64,000 nucleotides of DNA from an uncultured Candidatus Saccharibacteria bacterium (GTDB lineage: Bacteria; Patescibacteriota; Minisyncoccia; Phycocordibacterales; CAYSCM01): the NCBI GenBank assembly GCA_964429815.1, contig CAYSCM010000001.1, positions 437,705 to 501,704 of the forward strand, read 5' to 3'. Of the stretch, positions 6,395 through 29,922 are shown piece after piece (position 1 is the first letter of the stretch; each line of letters starts with the position of its first letter). Under the pieces are notes generated by a model. That model was not told the DNA's origin. It was given only the letters and a program-made list of their open reading frames with translations, and did no database searches. Position numbers and translations under genes: made by a program.

Positions 6395-6466
6395 GGGCCT
6401 ATAGTTTAATTGGTAAAACAGCGGTCTCCAAAACCGCCATTCCCCGTTCAAGTCGGGGTGGGCCCG
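6395..6466 (+). tRNA. tRNA-Trp (anticodon CCA)
   Basis: Acceptor GGGCCTA/TGGGCCC. Anticodon stem GCGGT/ACCGC with loop CTCCAAA. T-arm CCCCG-TTCAAGT-CGGGG. Confidence 0.8.
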
Positions 6467-7367
6467 CCTGGAATTTATACGAGAGCGCTTTCTTCGCGGA
6501 CGAAAACCAACGTATGCCGTTGTCACGTTTCCACCACGTCATCTGTCGACGCGAGAACTGCCAAATGGCAGCCTCAAGCCGCGTGAGCATCTCCTCTTTG
6601 GATAGTTTCCCCTCAAGGTAGTCGGCGAGATAGCGATACTCAAGTCCAAGCTCACGCATGCGCTTCAAGCGGAGCCCCCTTCGTCGTAGGCGCTTCGCCT
6701 CAGCGACCATTCCCTCTCGTATACGGGCATGAAGACGTTTCGCAATGTTGGCTCGGAGTTGCGAGTCTTTTGGCCGTATCCCGATTGTTACTGCCTCGTA
6801 GCGTGGTTTCGGGAGCTCTGCGGTTTTTTCTGCTGCGAGTGCGACCTCGATGGCGCGAATGAGACGCACGGGATTTTGCTTGTCGATAGTGAGATAGCGA
6901 CGCGGGGCGAGCTCTTTAAGGAGTGTTTTGAGTTCTGGGAGCGTCTTCTTTCTTAAATGATGTCTGAGAGCGGCGTCTGGCCGGACATTGGCAAGCTTTG
7001 TCTTACCGAGTGCGGCATCGATGTAAAACGCCGAGCCGCCGACCATGATGGGCAGTTTACCGCGCCGCGCTATATCCTCGATAGCGGCGCGGGCAGCGAT
7101 AGCGAAATCATACGCAGTGAAGACCCGCTTAGGGTCAGCGATGTCGAGGAGGTGATGGCGGACACCTTTCATCTCACGTTTCGTAATTTTGCCCGTGCCA
7201 ATCGTGAGACCGCGATATACCTGTCGAGAATCCGCGGAAATTATCTCGCCGTTAAGTTTTTTTGCCAGTCGCACACCCAGGCCGCTTTTCCCAGAGGCTG
7301 TGGGGCCGACTATAACGAGCACTTTTGTTCTTACGGACCTGTTTTTGTATACTTCTTTCGTACTCAT
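6399..7367 (-). CDS. miaA: tRNA dimethylallyltransferase
   Basis: P-loop VIVGPTASGKSGL, then EIISADSRQVYRGLTIGTGK and the rest of the MiaA core. The 3' ~65 nt of the ORF are antisense to tRNA-Trp. Confidence 0.85.
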   Translation of the reverse strand: MSTKEVYKNRSVRTKVLVIVGPTASGKSGLGVRLAKKLNGEIISADSRQVYRGLTIGTGKITKREMKGVRHHLLDIADPKRVFTAYDFAIAARAAIEDIARRGKLPIMVGGSAFYIDAALGKTKLANVRPDAALRHHLRKKTLPELKTLLKELAPRRYLTIDKQNPVRLIRAIEVALAAEKTAELPKPRYEAVTIGIRPKDSQLRANIAKRLHARIREGMVAEAKRLRRRGLRLKRMRELGLEYRYLADYLEGKLSKEEMLTRLEAAIWQFSRRQMTWWKRDNGIRWFSSAKKALSYKFQAGPPRLERGMAVLETAVLPIKL

Positions 7368-7380
7368 TAACTACATACTT

Positions 7381-7959
7381 ATGGAAACCATCACACCGAT
7401 CCACATCGGACAAAAAGTCCCAGATCTAGCCTTCAATGTCTACCACAATGATAAGGAGAAGAAAATGAGCCTCTCTGATTTCAAAGGGAAGTGGCTTATC
7501 CTCTTCTTCTATCCAAAGGACTTTACCTTCGTGTGCCCGACCGAGCTCGAAGAGATGGCCGGCCTTTATGATAAGTTCAAAAAAGAGGGGGCAGAGATCG
7601 TCTCGGTCTCAACCGATACCGTGCAGGTGCATAAAGCCTGGCATGACACGTCCGAAGCTATCAAAACGATAACCTTTCCGATGGCTGCGGACCCAACGCA
7701 CGCCCTCACGCACACCTTCGGTGTCCATATCGAGGAGGAGGGTGTGGCACTACGCGGCTCATTCGTGGTTGACCCTGAGGGAGTGCTTCAGGCGCTTGAG
7801 ATAAACCCCGATGGGGTAGGGCGTAATGCGAAGGAACTTTTGCGCAAGGTGCAGGCGCTCAAATTCGTCCGGGAGCACGGGGACAAAGTGTGTCCGGCGA
7901 GCTGGGAACCGGGGGACGAGACTCTTACTCCCGGAATGGACCTTGTCGGGAAAATATAG
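7381..7959 (+). CDS. ahpC: 2-Cys peroxiredoxin (AhpC/TSA family)
   Basis: Peroxidatic-Cys motif FTFVCPTE and resolving Cys in VCPASW. The true start is METITP; the ORF-track N-terminus is a read-through. Confidence 0.85.
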   Translation: METITPIHIGQKVPDLAFNVYHNDKEKKMSLSDFKGKWLILFFYPKDFTFVCPTELEEMAGLYDKFKKEGAEIVSVSTDTVQVHKAWHDTSEAIKTITFPMAADPTHALTHTFGVHIEEEGVALRGSFVVDPEGVLQALEINPDGVGRNAKELLRKVQALKFVREHGDKVCPASWEPGDETLTPGMDLVGKI

Positions 7960-8012
7960 CCGCTAGAGAAGTACCCTCTCCGGGTCTTCTGATCTACTAA
8001 CTCCATATTCTA

Positions 8013-8047
8013 GTTTTTTGCAAAAAACTAGAATATGAGATTTCTAT
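8013..8047. promoter_or_regulatory. perfect 34-bp palindrome, copy A of a motif that also flanks the ArsR gene
   Basis: catattctagtttttt-gc-aaaaaactagaatatg. Confidence 0.5.
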
Positions 8048-8068: not shown

Positions 8069-8104
8069 GGAATAAAAAGAAAAGCGGCGGCTCGTGAGAG
8101 CCGC
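8069..8104 (-). terminator. rho-independent terminator for pyrF
   Basis: Stem gcggcggctc / gagccgccgc with loop gtga. An A-run on the + strand gives a U-run for the minus-strand transcript. Confidence 0.55.
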
Positions 8105-8111
8105 CGCGGCA

Positions 8112-8855
8112 TTACCGGCGGTACAAATCCGTGTACTTGGTGATTATCTCAAGGGGTGACTTTTCATACCTTGGGTGAAAGAGCATTCGTCCCAAAATAT
8201 GATTCACCACTCGACCGTCCATGAGTGCAATAAGTTCTTCGGGCGTGATGGTATGGATTTGGTCGTCCTCCGCGATCCACGTGACCCACGTCGGGCGAAT
8301 AGCGGGGATCCAAAAGATAACCTTATCGAAGCGAGGCTTTTCGAGCAGTGTCGGCAGATCCCTTCCCGAACAAACAATGTCATTGATACCGGCGTTGACT
8401 GCCTCGGTCGCGAGGAGTTCCACCGCCTCAGCTCGTGTCTCGACCTTGTGAAGTCGTCTGGTCTCAACAAGGGGCTGCGTCGTCGGAACCGTGACTGCAA
8501 TCAGGGTAAGGTCGTGAGCTTTGGCAAGTGCGGCTCGCATCATGTGCTGCCCACCGACGGCAGCGACCGTGAGGTACTTCGCTCCAGCAAAGCGCGCTTT
8601 TTCAACGCGCTCCACCACGTCACTGTCGGCGCCATATCCTTTGTCGTCAACGAACACTCCTAGTGGGTCGAGTGGTCTTGCCGAGTGGATCGCGTTGACA
8701 CCTCCTTTTAGGTTATGAGAGCGAAAGGGTCCGTGGATCTTGATACCCCGAACATGTGGATTCCTCGCGAGTTCAACTGCGAGGTTTTCATGCGTGTCTG
8801 GGAGCGGATGACCCAATCGCTCGTCAAGCGCTGGCCAAATTCTGAGTTCCTGCAT
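8112..8855 (-). CDS. pyrF: orotidine 5'-phosphate decarboxylase (putative)
   Basis: Blocks align by eye with B. subtilis PyrF: PALD (IALD), LTVAAVGGQHMMRAAL (VNVHAAGGKKMMQAAL), TLIAVTVPTT (SLIAVTQLTS), DIVCS (GVVCS) and a C-terminal GR region. The catalytic D-x-K-x-x-D block is atypical (DDKGYGADSD). Confidence 0.55.
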   Translation of the reverse strand: MQELRIWPALDERLGHPLPDTHENLAVELARNPHVRGIKIHGPFRSHNLKGGVNAIHSARPLDPLGVFVDDKGYGADSDVVERVEKARFAGAKYLTVAAVGGQHMMRAALAKAHDLTLIAVTVPTTQPLVETRRLHKVETRAEAVELLATEAVNAGINDIVCSGRDLPTLLEKPRFDKVIFWIPAIRPTWVTWIAEDDQIHTITPEELIALMDGRVVNHILGRMLFHPRYEKSPLEIITKYTDLYRR

Positions 8856-26676: not shown

Positions 26677-27852
26677 CTATTTGAGCGCCAAGAAGGCGTT
26701 CAGGTAGTGGAGCGAAATGCCGCCGAAGTCGGAAGCGCTTGCAAACGCTTTTTCGACGGCGGCAATCTGCCGTTCGTAGCGAGCCCGTGAGGTATTGAAG
26801 TAGGTGGTATAGGGAGGGGGAACATCGCCAAACTCGCTTGCAATGACTATTTTTGCGGTATGTCCCTGCGCTTCACGCAGCTCGCCCTGCGAGATATCTA
26901 TGGCGCCATCGTGTCCTTGCGCAAAATTGCGGTACGCCATGACGATTATCGAGCTGCCCGGCCGGCGGTCGAGGAGTCGCACCAGCTGGTTGATGGTGTC
27001 GCCACGATGGAAACCGTAGAAAAATTTTCCGGCTGAGAGTGTGTCATAAAAATCAGGAACGACCACCGCAAAACGCAAATCCGAGCCGTAGAGCCACTCG
27101 AGGCTCTGGTCAACAAGTGCTGTAAAACGCCGCAAGACAACGCGCGGCTGACTCTGGTACTCTGAGAGAAGGTAGGGTTCGACATCGTACTGAAAACCGC
27201 GCAGTTTTTCCGTATTCATTTTATTGAAGTCGATGGCGTAGGCGACAACAGCCGCAGGTTTGTAGGTGTGGCCGGGCTCAGCCCAATTGCGCCAGCCCCC
27301 CTCTGCATCGACCGCGATGCCGGCCGCATGGGCGTGCGTCACGAAATCCTCAAGCGTTTCATCAAACTGTTTCTTCAAGGCACTCTTTTGCGACCCCTCA
27401 GGCATGATGAAAATATCGAGATACGAATCGATCGAAAGATAGATAGCCTTGATGCCCTCCTGTTTTGCCCCAGCGATTACGGTGTCGCGGTAGGTCGGCG
27501 TAATCTCGAGCACAGGAGTCCACAGCCACGTGCCTTTTTCAGCTGCCGTGTCGGTAGGGAGGATTTGCGTATGTCGCGGTGCAAAGGCGCTCAAAATGCT
27601 GGCGATTTGTCCGCCGCCTTCGATGGTGACCGAGTCGGCGAAGTGCGGATCGGAGAGCTTGGCGTTTTCCGTGATGTGAGTATCGGAGTACAGATGGGGG
27701 AGGACCGCAGGGAGGGAGAGAGTGAGCGCGGAGGAGCTCGGGGAGCTCGAACGCACCACGTAGTAGTACGCGCCGACGACGAGCCCGACGAGGAAAAGGG
27801 CGACGTAGAGTTGGTGCTTTGGACTGCCCCGAGGATGTCGAGCTTTGTGCAT
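26677..27852 (-). CDS. membrane-anchored putative glycoside-hydrolase-like (TIM-barrel) protein
   Basis: N-terminal TM anchor followed by a ~330 aa domain with glycosidase-like composition. The family assignment is uncertain. Confidence 0.35.
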   Translation of the reverse strand: MHKARHPRGSPKHQLYVALFLVGLVVGAYYYVVRSSSPSSSALTLSLPAVLPHLYSDTHITENAKLSDPHFADSVTIEGGGQIASILSAFAPRHTQILPTDTAAEKGTWLWTPVLEITPTYRDTVIAGAKQEGIKAIYLSIDSYLDIFIMPEGSQKSALKKQFDETLEDFVTHAHAAGIAVDAEGGWRNWAEPGHTYKPAAVVAYAIDFNKMNTEKLRGFQYDVEPYLLSEYQSQPRVVLRRFTALVDQSLEWLYGSDLRFAVVVPDFYDTLSAGKFFYGFHRGDTINQLVRLLDRRPGSSIIVMAYRNFAQGHDGAIDISQGELREAQGHTAKIVIASEFGDVPPPYTTYFNTSRARYERQIAAVEKAFASASDFGGISLHYLNAFLALK

Positions 27853-27924
27853 TCGCTCTATTTTATCCTATTTATCCTACGGCCAACCTTCCCACCCCAG
27901 CCTCCCCACCCCAGCCTCGTGTAT

Positions 27925-27953
27925 ATTCCAGTATTTTGCAAAATACTAGAATG
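27925..27953. promoter_or_regulatory. palindrome copy B, in the divergent promoter region upstream of the ArsR-family gene
   Basis: attccagtattttgcaaaatactagaat, a near-perfect inverted repeat centred on TTTTGCAAAA, about 30 bp upstream of the ArsR ATG. Confidence 0.5.
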
Positions 27954-27981
27954 AGTTGTCTTCCTGGGGTACGATACAGCC

Positions 27982-28257
27982 ATGGCTCAGCACACTTTCC
28001 GTTCACTTGAGCGCATTATCAAAGGATTTGACAACCATCGACGGCTCGGGATTCTCGACCTTCTTAAGCGTAAACCTGAACTCTCCGTGGACGAAATTGC
28101 GGAGCAACTTCGGATCGGCTACCAAAACGCCTCTGATCACATACGCAAAATGGCCATCGCAGGGTTGGTAGCTAAACGATATGAAGGGACGACCGTGCGA
28201 CACAAACTCACGCCGCGGGCTGAGGATATTCTAATATTTTGCAAAAAACTGGAATAA
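27982..28257 (+). CDS. ArsR/SmtB-family transcriptional regulator
   Basis: Winged HTH (LGILDLLKRKPELSVDEIAEQLRIGYQNASDHIRKMAIAGLV). The last nine codons (ILIFCKKLE) overlap palindrome copy C. Confidence 0.75.
   Translation: MAQHTFRSLERIIKGFDNHRRLGILDLLKRKPELSVDEIAEQLRIGYQNASDHIRKMAIAGLVAKRYEGTTVRHKLTPRAEDILIFCKKLE
28230..28256. promoter_or_regulatory. palindrome copy C, inside the 3' end of the ArsR gene
   Basis: ttctaatattttgcaaaaaactggaat has the same TTTTGCAAAA core and arms as copies A and B. Confidence 0.45.
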
Positions 28258-28372
28258 GGAAACAATAATAAGGAAACAATGAGGATACGAGAGGACGAAA
28301 ATGGAAAAACTTGAATAAAGAAGTAAGGAAAAGCGCAAAGGGGGAAACGCAGAGTCATACAAAATAAGTGAG

Positions 28373-29839
28373 CTATTTGAGAACGCTCCACATGCCCTGA
28401 TCCTCGCCGCCGTCCATTTTAAAGACGGCAACGCCGCGCACGCCGAGGCCCCGTGCGAGGTCGACTTTGTCTTTGATAGCCTGCGCGTCGTTCCAGGTCA
28501 TGTAGTTGAAAGGTTTGCTCGCATCGATTTGTGAGCCGAGATTTTGTGCAACGGAAGTTGTCGCGACCTCTTGCTGCGTTTGCGTGATGTTACCATCGGC
28601 CGGCGCCTGCGGAAGCGTCGCTTTGTCGTAGATGAAACCTACCTCGTTCGCGCTTGTGCGATGCACGGCGATGCCAAGCCGCGCGGCGATGTCGGTCGCA
28701 TATCCGGGGTTAAACGGCCAGAGCACTTCATACTGAAAACCCGAGCCGGAAAGTGGCGTCACGTGGTACTCGTAGCCGTAGGTCGGAATGCCGATGATGA
28801 GCTTATTGCGGGAAATGGTTTGTGCTGCAAGACGCACAAGATCTTCAACCCAGCCGGGGTCCGCGACCGGTGCGTACGGGGCGGAGCGTGCGACGTTTAA
28901 GCGCTTATCGACCGTCGTCTGATCATAGGCCATGATCTCGACGCGATCGCAGTACTTATTGAGCGCGACGTAGTCGTTGGCGTAGTCGGTCGCGTCCGGC
29001 GGAATGGTGTCGCCCGGAAGATAGCGGTCCTCAAGCGGCATGCGGGCTTCGACGGTGCAGTACACCCACTTTTGCCCCATGCGCTGGTAGAGGCCTTTGA
29101 GGAAGGTCGAGAAGTAGTTGATGGTCTCATGCTTTTTGGCTTCAAAGTCGATGTCTATGCCGTCAAAGCCCATGCCCTTCACGGTCGCCGCGATCTCGTC
29201 TTCCAGCGCGATACGCTTTGTGGTATTGCTCAATACCGCCTGCATCGCATCTGCGTTGCCCCAGAGAATGCTCGGCACCACGCGCACCTTGGTGGCCTTT
29301 GCCTGTGCGATAAAATCGCTCCAAGGTTCAAAGCCAAGTTGTGCGGTATCGATAAGATGACCATCTGAGCTCACGTTGTAGGAGAAGGGCATTACACTTG
29401 CTAGCTGAGGCAGGTGGGGGATGACGTCTCGGGTCGCTGTCGCTACTCGCCAGTAGGGAACCCAGCCGCTTATTTCAAATTTTCCGGTGGCAGCGGGTGT
29501 AAGAGTGAGGGAAATTTTTGCAGGATTTTTGGGGTACGTGGTCCCAAGCGTGAGAGCAGCTTGCGTTCTTGGGCCATACACACCGTAGCCGGTCGCATCT
29601 TCTGTACAGATGACCTCCTGCGCGCACTGGAACTTTTTAATCGCTGCTTGTGTGAGAGGACCAAAGTAGCCGGAGTCTTTTCCGGAGGCAAGATAACCCT
29701 GCGCGATGAGTTTTTGCTGGAGAGTAGCCACATCGCTTCCTGAATCGCCAAGCGATAGGGAGCGAGTCGCTGCGGAGGCCGTGGGCGCGATGAGGAGTAC
29801 GAAGAAAAGCGGAAGTGCAAATAAAAAACGTCGTGGCAT
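28373..29839 (-). CDS. secreted GH18 family protein with an N-terminal peptidoglycan-binding domain
   Basis: Signal peptide. PG_binding_1-like region (DSGSDVATLQQKLIAQGYL...FGPLTQAAIKKFQ). GH18 catalytic motif GFDGIDIDFE (DGxDxDxE). Confidence 0.75.
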   Translation of the reverse strand: MPRRFLFALPLFFVLLIAPTASAATRSLSLGDSGSDVATLQQKLIAQGYLASGKDSGYFGPLTQAAIKKFQCAQEVICTEDATGYGVYGPRTQAALTLGTTYPKNPAKISLTLTPAATGKFEISGWVPYWRVATATRDVIPHLPQLASVMPFSYNVSSDGHLIDTAQLGFEPWSDFIAQAKATKVRVVPSILWGNADAMQAVLSNTTKRIALEDEIAATVKGMGFDGIDIDFEAKKHETINYFSTFLKGLYQRMGQKWVYCTVEARMPLEDRYLPGDTIPPDATDYANDYVALNKYCDRVEIMAYDQTTVDKRLNVARSAPYAPVADPGWVEDLVRLAAQTISRNKLIIGIPTYGYEYHVTPLSGSGFQYEVLWPFNPGYATDIAARLGIAVHRTSANEVGFIYDKATLPQAPADGNITQTQQEVATTSVAQNLGSQIDASKPFNYMTWNDAQAIKDKVDLARGLGVRGVAVFKMDGGEDQGMWSVLK

Positions 29840-29922
29840 GTTCACATAGTAGCAGACGAACATAAAGAGGGGCGCTTACTCTTCGGCATCGGGTACTAGC
29901 AGCAATTTGCTAGAATTGACCC

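Follow-up and report, generated by a model that had tools for sequence, protein, structure and literature searches.

A palindrome that brackets an ArsR-fold regulator gene, forms its final codons, and recurs as a dispersed repeat in Patescibacteria

Why does a small regulator gene carry the same palindrome twice, once ahead of its start codon and once within its own last codons? The question is raised by a locus in a window of 64,000 nucleotides (nt), which is the whole stretch of DNA that was analyzed (positions 437,705 to 501,704 of contig CAYSCM010000001.1). Here, a gene for a 91-amino-acid protein of the ArsR family is bracketed by two copies of a palindrome centered on TTTTGCAAAA. This arrangement had been proposed in a first-pass annotation of the DNA and was confirmed: both copies were found and the open reading frame (ORF) matches the HTH_20 and HTH_5 families. 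The features on which the argument depends are listed below.

27924-27953, no strand: upstream copy of the palindrome, the 30-mer TATTCCAGTATTTTGCAAAATACTAGAATG, presumed autoregulatory binding site (sequence reading and weight matrix).
27970-27975, plus strand: -10-like hexamer TACGAT, 6 nt before the regulator ATG (sequence reading; the layout recurs in homologues).
27982-28257, plus strand: regulator gene, encoding a predicted 91-amino-acid winged helix of ArsR/SmtB fold without metal-ligand motifs (Pfam, profile matches to the PDB, AlphaFold2, and Foldseek).
28213-28254, plus strand: codons for the C-terminal helix alpha5 (residues 78-90) and Glu91 (secondary structure of the model).
28227-28256, no strand: intragenic 3' copy of the palindrome, extending over codons 83-91 (ILIFCKKLE) and two bases into the stop codon.
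8004-8037, no strand: orphan copy CATATTCTAGTTTTTTGCAAAAAACTAGAATATG, a perfect 34-bp palindrome between the 3' ends of convergent genes.

The window contains exactly three copies of the palindrome, two at the regulator gene (27924-27953 and 28227-28256) and one elsewhere (8004-8037). The upstream copy, ATTCCAGTATTTTGCAAAATACTAGAAT at 27925-27952, matches at 13 of 14 positions between its arms and ends 29 nt upstream of the ATG at 27982. The 3' copy is ATTCTAATATTTTGCAAAAAACTGGAAT with an arm match of 11 of 14; its existence had been noted correctly, but it occupies 28228-28255 and not 28230-28256. In the frame of the gene it reads ATT CTA ATA TTT TGC AAA AAA CTG GAA T(AA), which corresponds to I83-E91 followed by the beginning of the stop codon. 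Of the 28 positions, 24 agree between the two copies, and the consensus of the palindrome is (T/C)ATTCTAGTnTTTTGCAAAAnACTAGAAT(A/G). With a position weight matrix that was trained on ~190 related sites, the three window sites scored 50-53 bits and the next best position in the 64 kb scored -8.7. As shuffled sequences yielded zero matches to the motif and the gap in matrix scores is so wide, a chance origin was excluded.

The product of the gene scored above the Pfam gathering thresholds for both HTH_20 (35.9 bits, cut-off 27) and HTH_5 (28.6 bits, cut-off 22), and the family profile matched HlyU, CadC, CzrA, AspA, NolR, and SmtB among PDB entries. An AlphaFold2 model with a predicted local distance difference test (pLDDT) value of 81 places helices at residues 2-14, 19-30, 36-43, 47-59, and 78-90 and strands at 63-68 and 71-76. 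The predicted order of elements, alpha1-alpha2-alpha3-alphaR-beta-beta-alpha5, is that of ArsR/SmtB proteins. Foldseek comparisons of the model identified SqrR, HlyU, CadC, and SmtB with template modeling (TM) scores of 0.7-0.79, and AspA was among the best predicted structural matches with a root-mean-square deviation of 0.9-1.4 A over ~70 residues. In the model, alpha5 corresponds to the dimerization helix of the ArsR family and its second half is the portion encoded by the palindrome.

Reading of the sequence revealed no metal ligands: the alpha3 position is ELSVDE without the cysteines of an ELCVCD-type motif, and alpha5 is devoid of His or Asp ligands. The NCBIfam metalloregulator model NF033788 produced 50 bits, which is under its cut-off of 55. 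The 12-2-12 metal-sensor frame of ArsR proteins in which the gene had been interpreted initially therefore is a poor fit, and the protein, judged by these motifs, is of ArsR fold but is no recognizable metal sensor. More than 480 homologues were found, and all those with a source name belong to Patescibacteria (Paceibacteria lineages). The listed homologues are ~70-80% identical and possess a nearly invariant C-terminus, ILVFCKxLE. A search of viral contigs with the 91-amino-acid protein produced zero relatives, and a phage origin was dropped for this reason.

Conservation of both palindromes and selection on the 3' copy as DNA

Seventy-nine genome loci (L001-L079) were collected for homologues of the regulator. 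Approximately 80 homologous genes in Paceibacteria lineages (Kaiser-, Adler-, Nomura-, Taylor-, Lipton-, Niyogi-, and Moranbacteria) have one palindrome upstream and one over the last nine codons plus the stop codon. The upstream copy is present in 75-79 of the ~80 genes, and the 3' copy is kept within the coding end in ~75 homologues, where it falls 2 nt short of the end of the stop codon. The 3' copy had been described as unusual, and this description gained substance both from its conservation across the family and from the nucleotide-level selection detailed below. Some genomes have 2-4 regulator paralogues, and the neighbors of the regulator genes are unrelated. One Adlerbacteria contig (L013) carries three palindromes 123 bp apart upstream of a single regulator gene (1337-1600), with a second regulator paralogue 8 kb away.

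The position of the upstream copy is equally regular. The modal layout is palindrome, 4 nt, TAnAAT, 6 nt, and ATG, with the center of the palindrome ~30 nt from the start codon, and this order of elements implies that the mRNA is probably leaderless. In most homologues the central TTGCAA is situated 15 nt upstream of TAnAAT, that is, at the -35 position. Compared to the modal layout, the window copy is displaced by 12 nt away from its ATG, and the -35 position of the TACGAT box is occupied by its right arm (27947-27952); the regulator transcript also would be leaderless here, as the hexamer precedes the ATG by 6 nt. These promoter elements were identified by visual inspection and were backed by the comparison of homologues, and a consensus scan of 27700-28500 for promoters and terminators returned nothing. 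The overlap with the -35 position and the recurrence of the layout in homologues both favor the assignment of the upstream copy as a probable autoregulatory operator, which the first-pass annotation had made.

Synonymous variation was assessed in a gap-free codon alignment of 72 distinct regulator genes. Normalized synonymous entropy was 0.906 in the first 71 scored codon columns compared to 0.274 in the last 10, and the lowest 10-codon window within the first 71 columns had an entropy of 0.829; none of 200,000 permutations was as extreme. Pairwise identity at third codon positions was 0.35 in the first columns and 0.76 in the last ten. Codon choice in this segment is close to uniform: Ser is TCT in 39/39 cases, Ile is ATT in 52/61, Leu is CTA in 67/71, Cys is TGC in 72/72, Lys is AAA in 70/70, Glu is GAA in 40/40, and Phe is TTT in 71/72 as opposed to 33/69 at another Phe column. 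Synonymous sites thus are free early in the gene but frozen over its final ten codons, which means that selection acts on the 3' copy as DNA. Moreover, because the codons TTT TGC AAA also make up the core of the DNA site, the invariance of Phe-Cys-Lys cannot be read as purely protein-level, for example as that of a redox-sensing cysteine.

Two Liptonbacteria loci separate the coding role of the segment from its role as a DNA site. The proteins of L024 and L028 terminate in FCRSLK and FCRSLT, respectively, which are specified by non-palindromic codons, and the embedded copy has been lost. In both cases a perfect palindrome is located 45-56 nt past the stop codon (L024 at 10328 and L028 at 10339). 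Thus, a site at the end of the gene is needed regardless of coding, and the retention of Phe-Cys in these two proteins indicates that the protein is under a constraint of its own as well.

The site is symmetric out to positions +/-15 with an invariant core at +/-1-5. Compensatory changes were observed at +/-7, 8, 10, 12, and 15, some of which employ synonymous codons (Ala GCT with Lys AAG) and others a change of residue (Val to Thr together with Lys to Thr). Variants with CA...TG were observed as well, and the flanking TA...TA was therefore assigned to the inverted symmetry. Within a gene, the upstream copy and the 3' copy change together, with z scores of 7-11 against shuffles, which ignore phylogeny and so overstate independence. 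The last residue of the protein tracks the class of half-site: LE is associated with CTAGAAT, LQ with CTGCAAT, LA with CTAGCAT, and LV with CTAGTAT, and the upstream arm ATTGCA accompanies 10 of 19 LQ genes but none of 38 LE genes. The recognition helix, GY(E/Q)NASDH, is invariant, as is the core TTTTGCAAAA. The outer arm is variable, and residues of the wing tip change along with it: they are different in the clade that has AAC in place of AGT at +/-7-9, which, as a single clade, is weak evidence.

The symmetry data bear on the possibility that the palindromes function as RNA hairpins, either as intrinsic or bidirectional terminators or as 3' stabilizers. The orphan at 8004-8037 would suit this role, as it folds with -17 kcal/mol (z -8.2) between convergent genes, and orphans generally are biased to gene 3' ends. 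However, mismatches between the arms have no G-U bias (33 GT versus 43 AC), and the 10 nt that would form the loop together with the top of the stem are invariant, which a hairpin does not need. The 3' copy of the window, for which a terminator-like nature had been suggested, folds with -4 kcal/mol (z -0.96) and with -1.7 kcal/mol on the other strand, and lacks a T-run; the scan of 27700-28500 detected no terminator, and there was no Rfam match in the same interval at E values up to 10. Copies also reside within essential ORFs. The terminator proposal consequently was abandoned and a hairpin function in general is regarded as highly improbable.

The two directly repeated 30-bp sites that bracket the gene in variable contexts, the existence of solo sites, and an 11-6-11 reading of the 28-mer are compatible with a further possibility, namely, that the palindromes are recombination sites (attC, dif, or pdif-module) that bound a mobile 300-bp regulator cassette, with orphans as empty sites or scars. 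This explanation encounters several difficulties and also has a very low likelihood. The central TTGCAA is symmetric so that the site has no polarity. Cross-arm similarity (7.35 and 7.41) is below same-arm similarity (8.32 and 7.78), whereas recent integration predicts higher values. The 3' copy is integral to a structurally required helix, and no recombinase was found among the top 25 flanking families, a survey in which rare cases could be missed. The specific dif/Xer form of the 11-6-11 reading was rejected on account of the symmetric center and the many copies.

How the palindromes may act and where else they occur

The preferred explanation, whose prospects of being correct are judged to be even, assigns three roles to the palindrome as the predicted cognate site of a dimer of the 91-amino-acid protein: autoregulatory operator, 3' auxiliary site or roadblock, and target of a genome-wide binder. 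From the position, symmetry, and co-variation of the sites we infer that an ArsR-fold homodimer binds them. The greater likeness of orphans to regulator-linked sites at their own locus (9.90 versus 8.46 of 15 positions, p = 5e-8) is in line with this inference. The copy at 27924-27953, which overlaps the -35 position of a putatively leaderless promoter, would mediate negative autoregulation, and the copy at 28227-28256 would be a second site kept as DNA within the codons of the dimerization helix. Most likely, the latter would act as a downstream auxiliary operator or as a roadblock. In this mechanism, an abundant protein would occupy the final 30 bp of the gene that encodes it, and the bound protein may hinder RNA polymerase either in completing the stop codon or in reading into downstream sequence; it also may gate read-through into a close co-directional gene. 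With the site spread as a repeat family through genomes, the protein would be a genome-wide site-specific binder and not a local metal sensor.

A series of observations weighs against this explanation. The link between the protein and the site consists of co-occurrence and co-variation, and shared ancestry or gene conversion could produce both. At L024 and L028, a stalled polymerase would be positioned past the stop codon, and therefore the generation of non-stop mRNA is not a universal role. The spacing between upstream and 3' copies is 283-340 bp with no significant preference at a 10.5-bp period (Rayleigh R = 0.19, p ~0.07) and a best period of 8.3 bp; phased looping between the two copies thus gains no support. 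The distribution of further copies is also unfavorable. A scan of metagenome contigs for TTCTAGTNTTTTGCAAAANACTAGAA identified at least 119 loci, and the context was examined for 108 exact sites, sampled among the matches listed, whose flanks measure 350 nt or more. No regulator gene is nearby at 76 of these 108 sites. Such orphans are in convergent (18), tandem (31), or divergent (6) intergenic contexts or inside ORFs (21), counts that are approximate as the gene calls were crude (longest ORF, greedy). This bias to gene 3' ends is the opposite of operator behavior. The adjoining genes are ordinary and varied (PPDK, GAPDH, sigma-70, ClpP, AlaRS, DnaB, and others), and Pfam profiling of 48 genes that start and 64 that end near palindromes detected no enriched family; a normal regulon was rejected on this basis. 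In addition, in-frame copies in genes for a class I tRNA synthetase (L161 5346), TGT (L143 565), and TsaD (L189 2085) argue against a strong constitutive roadblock. Finally, copies in the same genome often are identical over 34-40 bp and differ between genomes, which looks more like repeat copying than like independent operators. By the terms of the first-pass annotation, a motif dispersed over many places that have no relation to promoters would count against its reading, and this was borne out in part: most sampled copies are orphans, convergent contexts exceed divergent ones, and several copies are inside housekeeping genes.

Accommodation of the palindrome within other coding sequences follows a narrow pattern. 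Additional in-frame copies occur at the same position in two orthologues of an HhH-GPD glycosylase (L187 7018 and L167 1738), in a lactonase-like gene (L097 651), and at the same position in three orthologues of a protein without an assigned family. The copies inside ORFs employ only two stop-free frames that encode either ...SSILQNTRI... or ...ILVFCKxLE.... In the case of the three orthologues, the flanking codons are heavily diverged, and the palindrome is identical save for a compensatory change at +/-6. The intact state of copies amid diverged flanks points to selection or to continued conversion. The sites at L111 2601, L148 7943, and L197 5537 likewise are in frame within ORFs, and linkers of variable length are present at the junctions of some insertions.

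These findings lend some weight to the view that the palindrome is a self-propagating dispersed repeat of the REP (repetitive extragenic palindromic)/REPIN, MITE (miniature inverted-repeat transposable element), or Rickettsia palindromic element (RPE) type with which the winged-helix gene is associated. In that event, the operator position and the coding of the C-terminus would be by-products of an ancient insertion or capture and would not reflect regulation by design. The preponderance of orphans in the sample, their enrichment in convergent and tandem contexts and depletion in divergent ones, the in-frame insertions in housekeeping genes in two stop-free frames, the within-genome identity over 34-40 bp that is accompanied by differences between genomes, the unrelated neighbors, and the presence of 2-4 regulator copies in some genomes all accord with a repeat. 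However, no transposase is associated with the palindrome and there were no viral matches. A lone IS200-type Y1 gene in 1.93 Mb is beside a single orphan copy and is not flanked by copies; as the sole Y1_Tnp gene, it was treated as a coincidence and a link of RAYT (REP-associated tyrosine transposase) type was rejected. Furthermore, both the core and a protein of 70-80% identity are conserved over class-level lineages, unlike fast-turning selfish repeats, regulator genes have the sites in a fixed place with respect to the -10 box and the stop codon, and orthologous copies inside ORFs remain intact between diverged flanks, which would require selection or continued conversion. On balance, a primarily self-propagating repeat is judged to be rather unlikely.

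Composite intergenic arrangements were observed at L090, L139 (~6340), L091, and L177, in which ~40 nt rich in purines separate a half palindrome of one class (...GGCAAAACGTTAGAATGA) from a subsequent full palindrome of another class. At L177, a ~55-nt flank together with the palindrome is duplicated 816 bp apart.

Dispersed sites, including those inside genes, with neighbors that lack a functional theme also are expected of sites for chromosome organization or segregation, as with parS/ParB, NBS/Noc, matS/MatP, or an AspA-centromere system, to which the winged-helix protein would bind without a transcriptional role. The appearance of AspA among the best predicted structural matches and the far greater conservation of the protein compared to a typical local regulator are in keeping with this idea. 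Nevertheless, no ParA- or ParB-like partner is encoded beside the regulator gene in the window, several paralogues with different site classes are found in one genome, and the fixed overlap with the promoter suggests transcriptional autoregulation at least. A segregation function in place of the proposed operator and genome-wide binding roles accordingly was viewed as improbable. As read from the sequences, the palindrome is more than the operator of a local regulon.

Flanking sequences and neighboring genes

Three further features surround the regulator gene.

26677-27852, minus strand: divergent neighbor of 391 amino acids with an N-terminal hydrophobic segment and no family match (library searches and sequence reading).
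27883-27918, no strand: C-rich tandem repeat of 14-bp period, with two copies of CCCACCCCAGCCTC and one degenerate copy (sequence reading).
28257-28372, plus strand: spacer between the regulator gene and a GH18 gene, 79% purine, which begins with two copies of AATAAGGAAACAAT (28253-28280).

The ORF at 26677-27852 had no Pfam or NCBIfam match, and its earlier label as glycosidase-like was not confirmed. Control of this gene by the upstream palindrome, which had been considered probable, finds no support in the layout: the gene has its own TAAAAT box at 27860-27865, 7 nt before its ATG, and the palindrome is at least ~72 nt upstream of the ATG and is outside the core promoter. Neither the regulator gene nor the divergent gene has a Shine-Dalgarno sequence, and in both a TAnnAT-type box precedes the ATG by 6-7 nt. 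This arrangement, which is shared by most homologous loci, suggests that both may be expressed from leaderless mRNAs.

The direct repeat that had been reported upstream of the gene is real, but its period is 14 bp and not 13 bp. Exact copies of CCCACCCCAGCCTC are at 27891-27904 and 27905-27918 with the degenerate copy ahead of them from 27883. The repeat separates the palindrome from the divergent gene, on whose strand it is G-rich. Downstream, the convergent gene at 28373-29863 (minus strand) encodes a protein with GH18 and PG_binding_1 domains. The paired AATAAGGAAACAAT copies (28253-28280) at the start of the spacer also repeat with a 14-bp period; the first overlaps the end of the palindrome and the stop codon, and the second provides an AAGGA Shine-Dalgarno-like motif 4 nt ahead of an 11-codon mini-ORF (28279-28314). 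The 60 nt upstream of the cassette (27864-27923) are 28% purine, compared to 79% in the downstream spacer. At homologous loci, the downstream flank likewise is purine- and G-rich (GC skew +0.32 versus +0.05 background, p = 3e-8), with a mild excess of pyrimidines in the upstream flank. With this asymmetry, transcripts that enter the cassette from either side would be C-rich and G-poor and thus rut-like.

About half of the loci have a co-directional gene within 200 nt downstream of the regulator. At L030, L071, L073, L048, L039, and L029, the ATG of the downstream gene overlaps the regulator stop codon within the end of the palindrome, in the form ...GAA TGA, ...CGA TGA, or ATGA (L030). The overlaps suggest possible translational coupling with varied genes, including those for an FAD oxidoreductase, a HAD hydrolase, and an exonuclease-like protein, among others.

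The orphan at 8004-8037 is flanked by a gene for an AhpC-type peroxiredoxin (~7378-7959, plus strand) and by a convergent pyrF-like gene (8112-8855, minus strand). The minus-strand gene has a canonical G+C-rich terminator (~8083-8107) at a distance of 46 nt from the orphan, and the orphan is followed by a 7-codon ORF and by TATTAT and TATATA boxes. No remnant of a regulator gene was detected at this site in either reading direction. A regulator pseudogene was considered and rejected: stop codons are two codons upstream in both directions, and tblastn recovered only the nine residues that the palindrome encodes. In the same part of the window, a tRNA-Trp gene (6395-6468, plus strand) overlaps the last ~70 nt of a miaA-like stop-to-stop ORF (6399-7367) on the minus strand, which reflects either a real antisense overlap or a misjudged 3' end of the ORF.

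Relation to known systems and wider meaning

The system resembles ArsR/SmtB autorepressors (SmtB, CzrA, CadC, HlyU, NolR, and SqrR) in the predicted fold, in the C-terminal dimerization helix, and, by position and with predicted binding, in a palindromic site over the regulator's own promoter. It is unlike them in that its palindrome is 30 bp long with 10 bp of invariant core, that a second site is located in its own coding end, and that there are dozens more sites without a functional theme. REP and REPIN sequences with their RAYT genes are dispersed, extragenic short palindromes near gene 3' ends, and the protein gene is flanked by two copies. The present repeats share with them the mostly extragenic dispersal near gene 3' ends and the protein gene between two copies; in contrast, the flanked gene here encodes a 91-amino-acid winged helix and not a Y1/HUH transposase, and one copy is inside coding sequence. 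The parS site lies inside spo0J. Both parS in spo0J and the AspA site upstream of aspA share with the present locus a dispersed site, here a predicted one, at the gene of the binding protein, but no partition partners were seen here, the site overlaps a -35 position, and several paralogues with different predicted specificity classes are present per genome.

The closest counterpart of the 3' copy is the lac O3 operator in the 3' end of lacI. There, repressor bound at this site truncates the lacI transcript and the product is SsrA-tagged (Abo et al., 2000, via PMC3711431). The shared trait is a repressor site in the 3' end of the regulator's own gene, at 28227-28256 in the window and with predicted binding, which would provide negative feedback at a stage after initiation. 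The lacI-O3 site is a weak auxiliary operator in one species and depends on looping of a tetramer to O1, whereas the 3' site here is as good as the promoter site, is clade-wide, has frozen synonymous positions, and displays no significant helical phasing with the upstream copy. The 64-kb window contains no transfer-messenger RNA (tmRNA) gene, which is uninformative either way. RPE and MITE-like repeats provide a parallel for the copies inside other genes, as they are in-frame inserts of ~100-150 bp in protein genes (PMC10969869). A palindromic repeat that is tolerated as an in-frame peptide in housekeeping proteins is common to both; unlike the RPE, the element here is 30-36 bp, has an invariant core, and has an evident, if predicted, cognate DNA-binding protein.

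No description was found in the literature of the combination, of the site of the protein family, or of the core motif. Each ingredient has precedent, namely, autorepression, an operator at the 3' end of the gene for the regulator itself, genes between repeats, and palindromes inserted in frame.

The locus provides an unusually clean natural instance of dual coding, in which the same ten codons must satisfy the demands of an alpha-helix and of a predicted protein-binding site, and which is measurable in more than 70 genes. The two lineages L024 and L028 supply a natural control by separating the coding role from the DNA-site role. If the 3' copy is a roadblock, the mechanism of lacI-O3 would be ancient and widespread as opposed to peculiar to E. 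coli. Should the palindromes prove to be mobile, they would constitute an added repeat family with a non-transposase partner. A bolder proposal, which is advanced tentatively as a possibility, is that the palindromes and the protein form a clade-wide Paceibacteria system of its own kind, in which a family of 30-36-bp palindromic repeats is interlocked physically with its predicted binding protein. One copy would furnish the dimerization helix and stop codon, another the promoter, and further copies, including those in essential genes, would be actively maintained, although this again is put forward with reserve. Were this interlock genuine, changes in site specificity would be written directly into the C-terminal residues of the protein, and the system would parallel REP/RAYT without a transposase or would serve to control transcription or to mark the chromosome throughout the genome.

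Patescibacteria are ultra-small, uncultured bacteria with few regulators. For this group, a first concrete handle on gene regulation or genome organization is offered by a highly conserved DNA-binding protein together with its probable site and the mapped locations of such sites.

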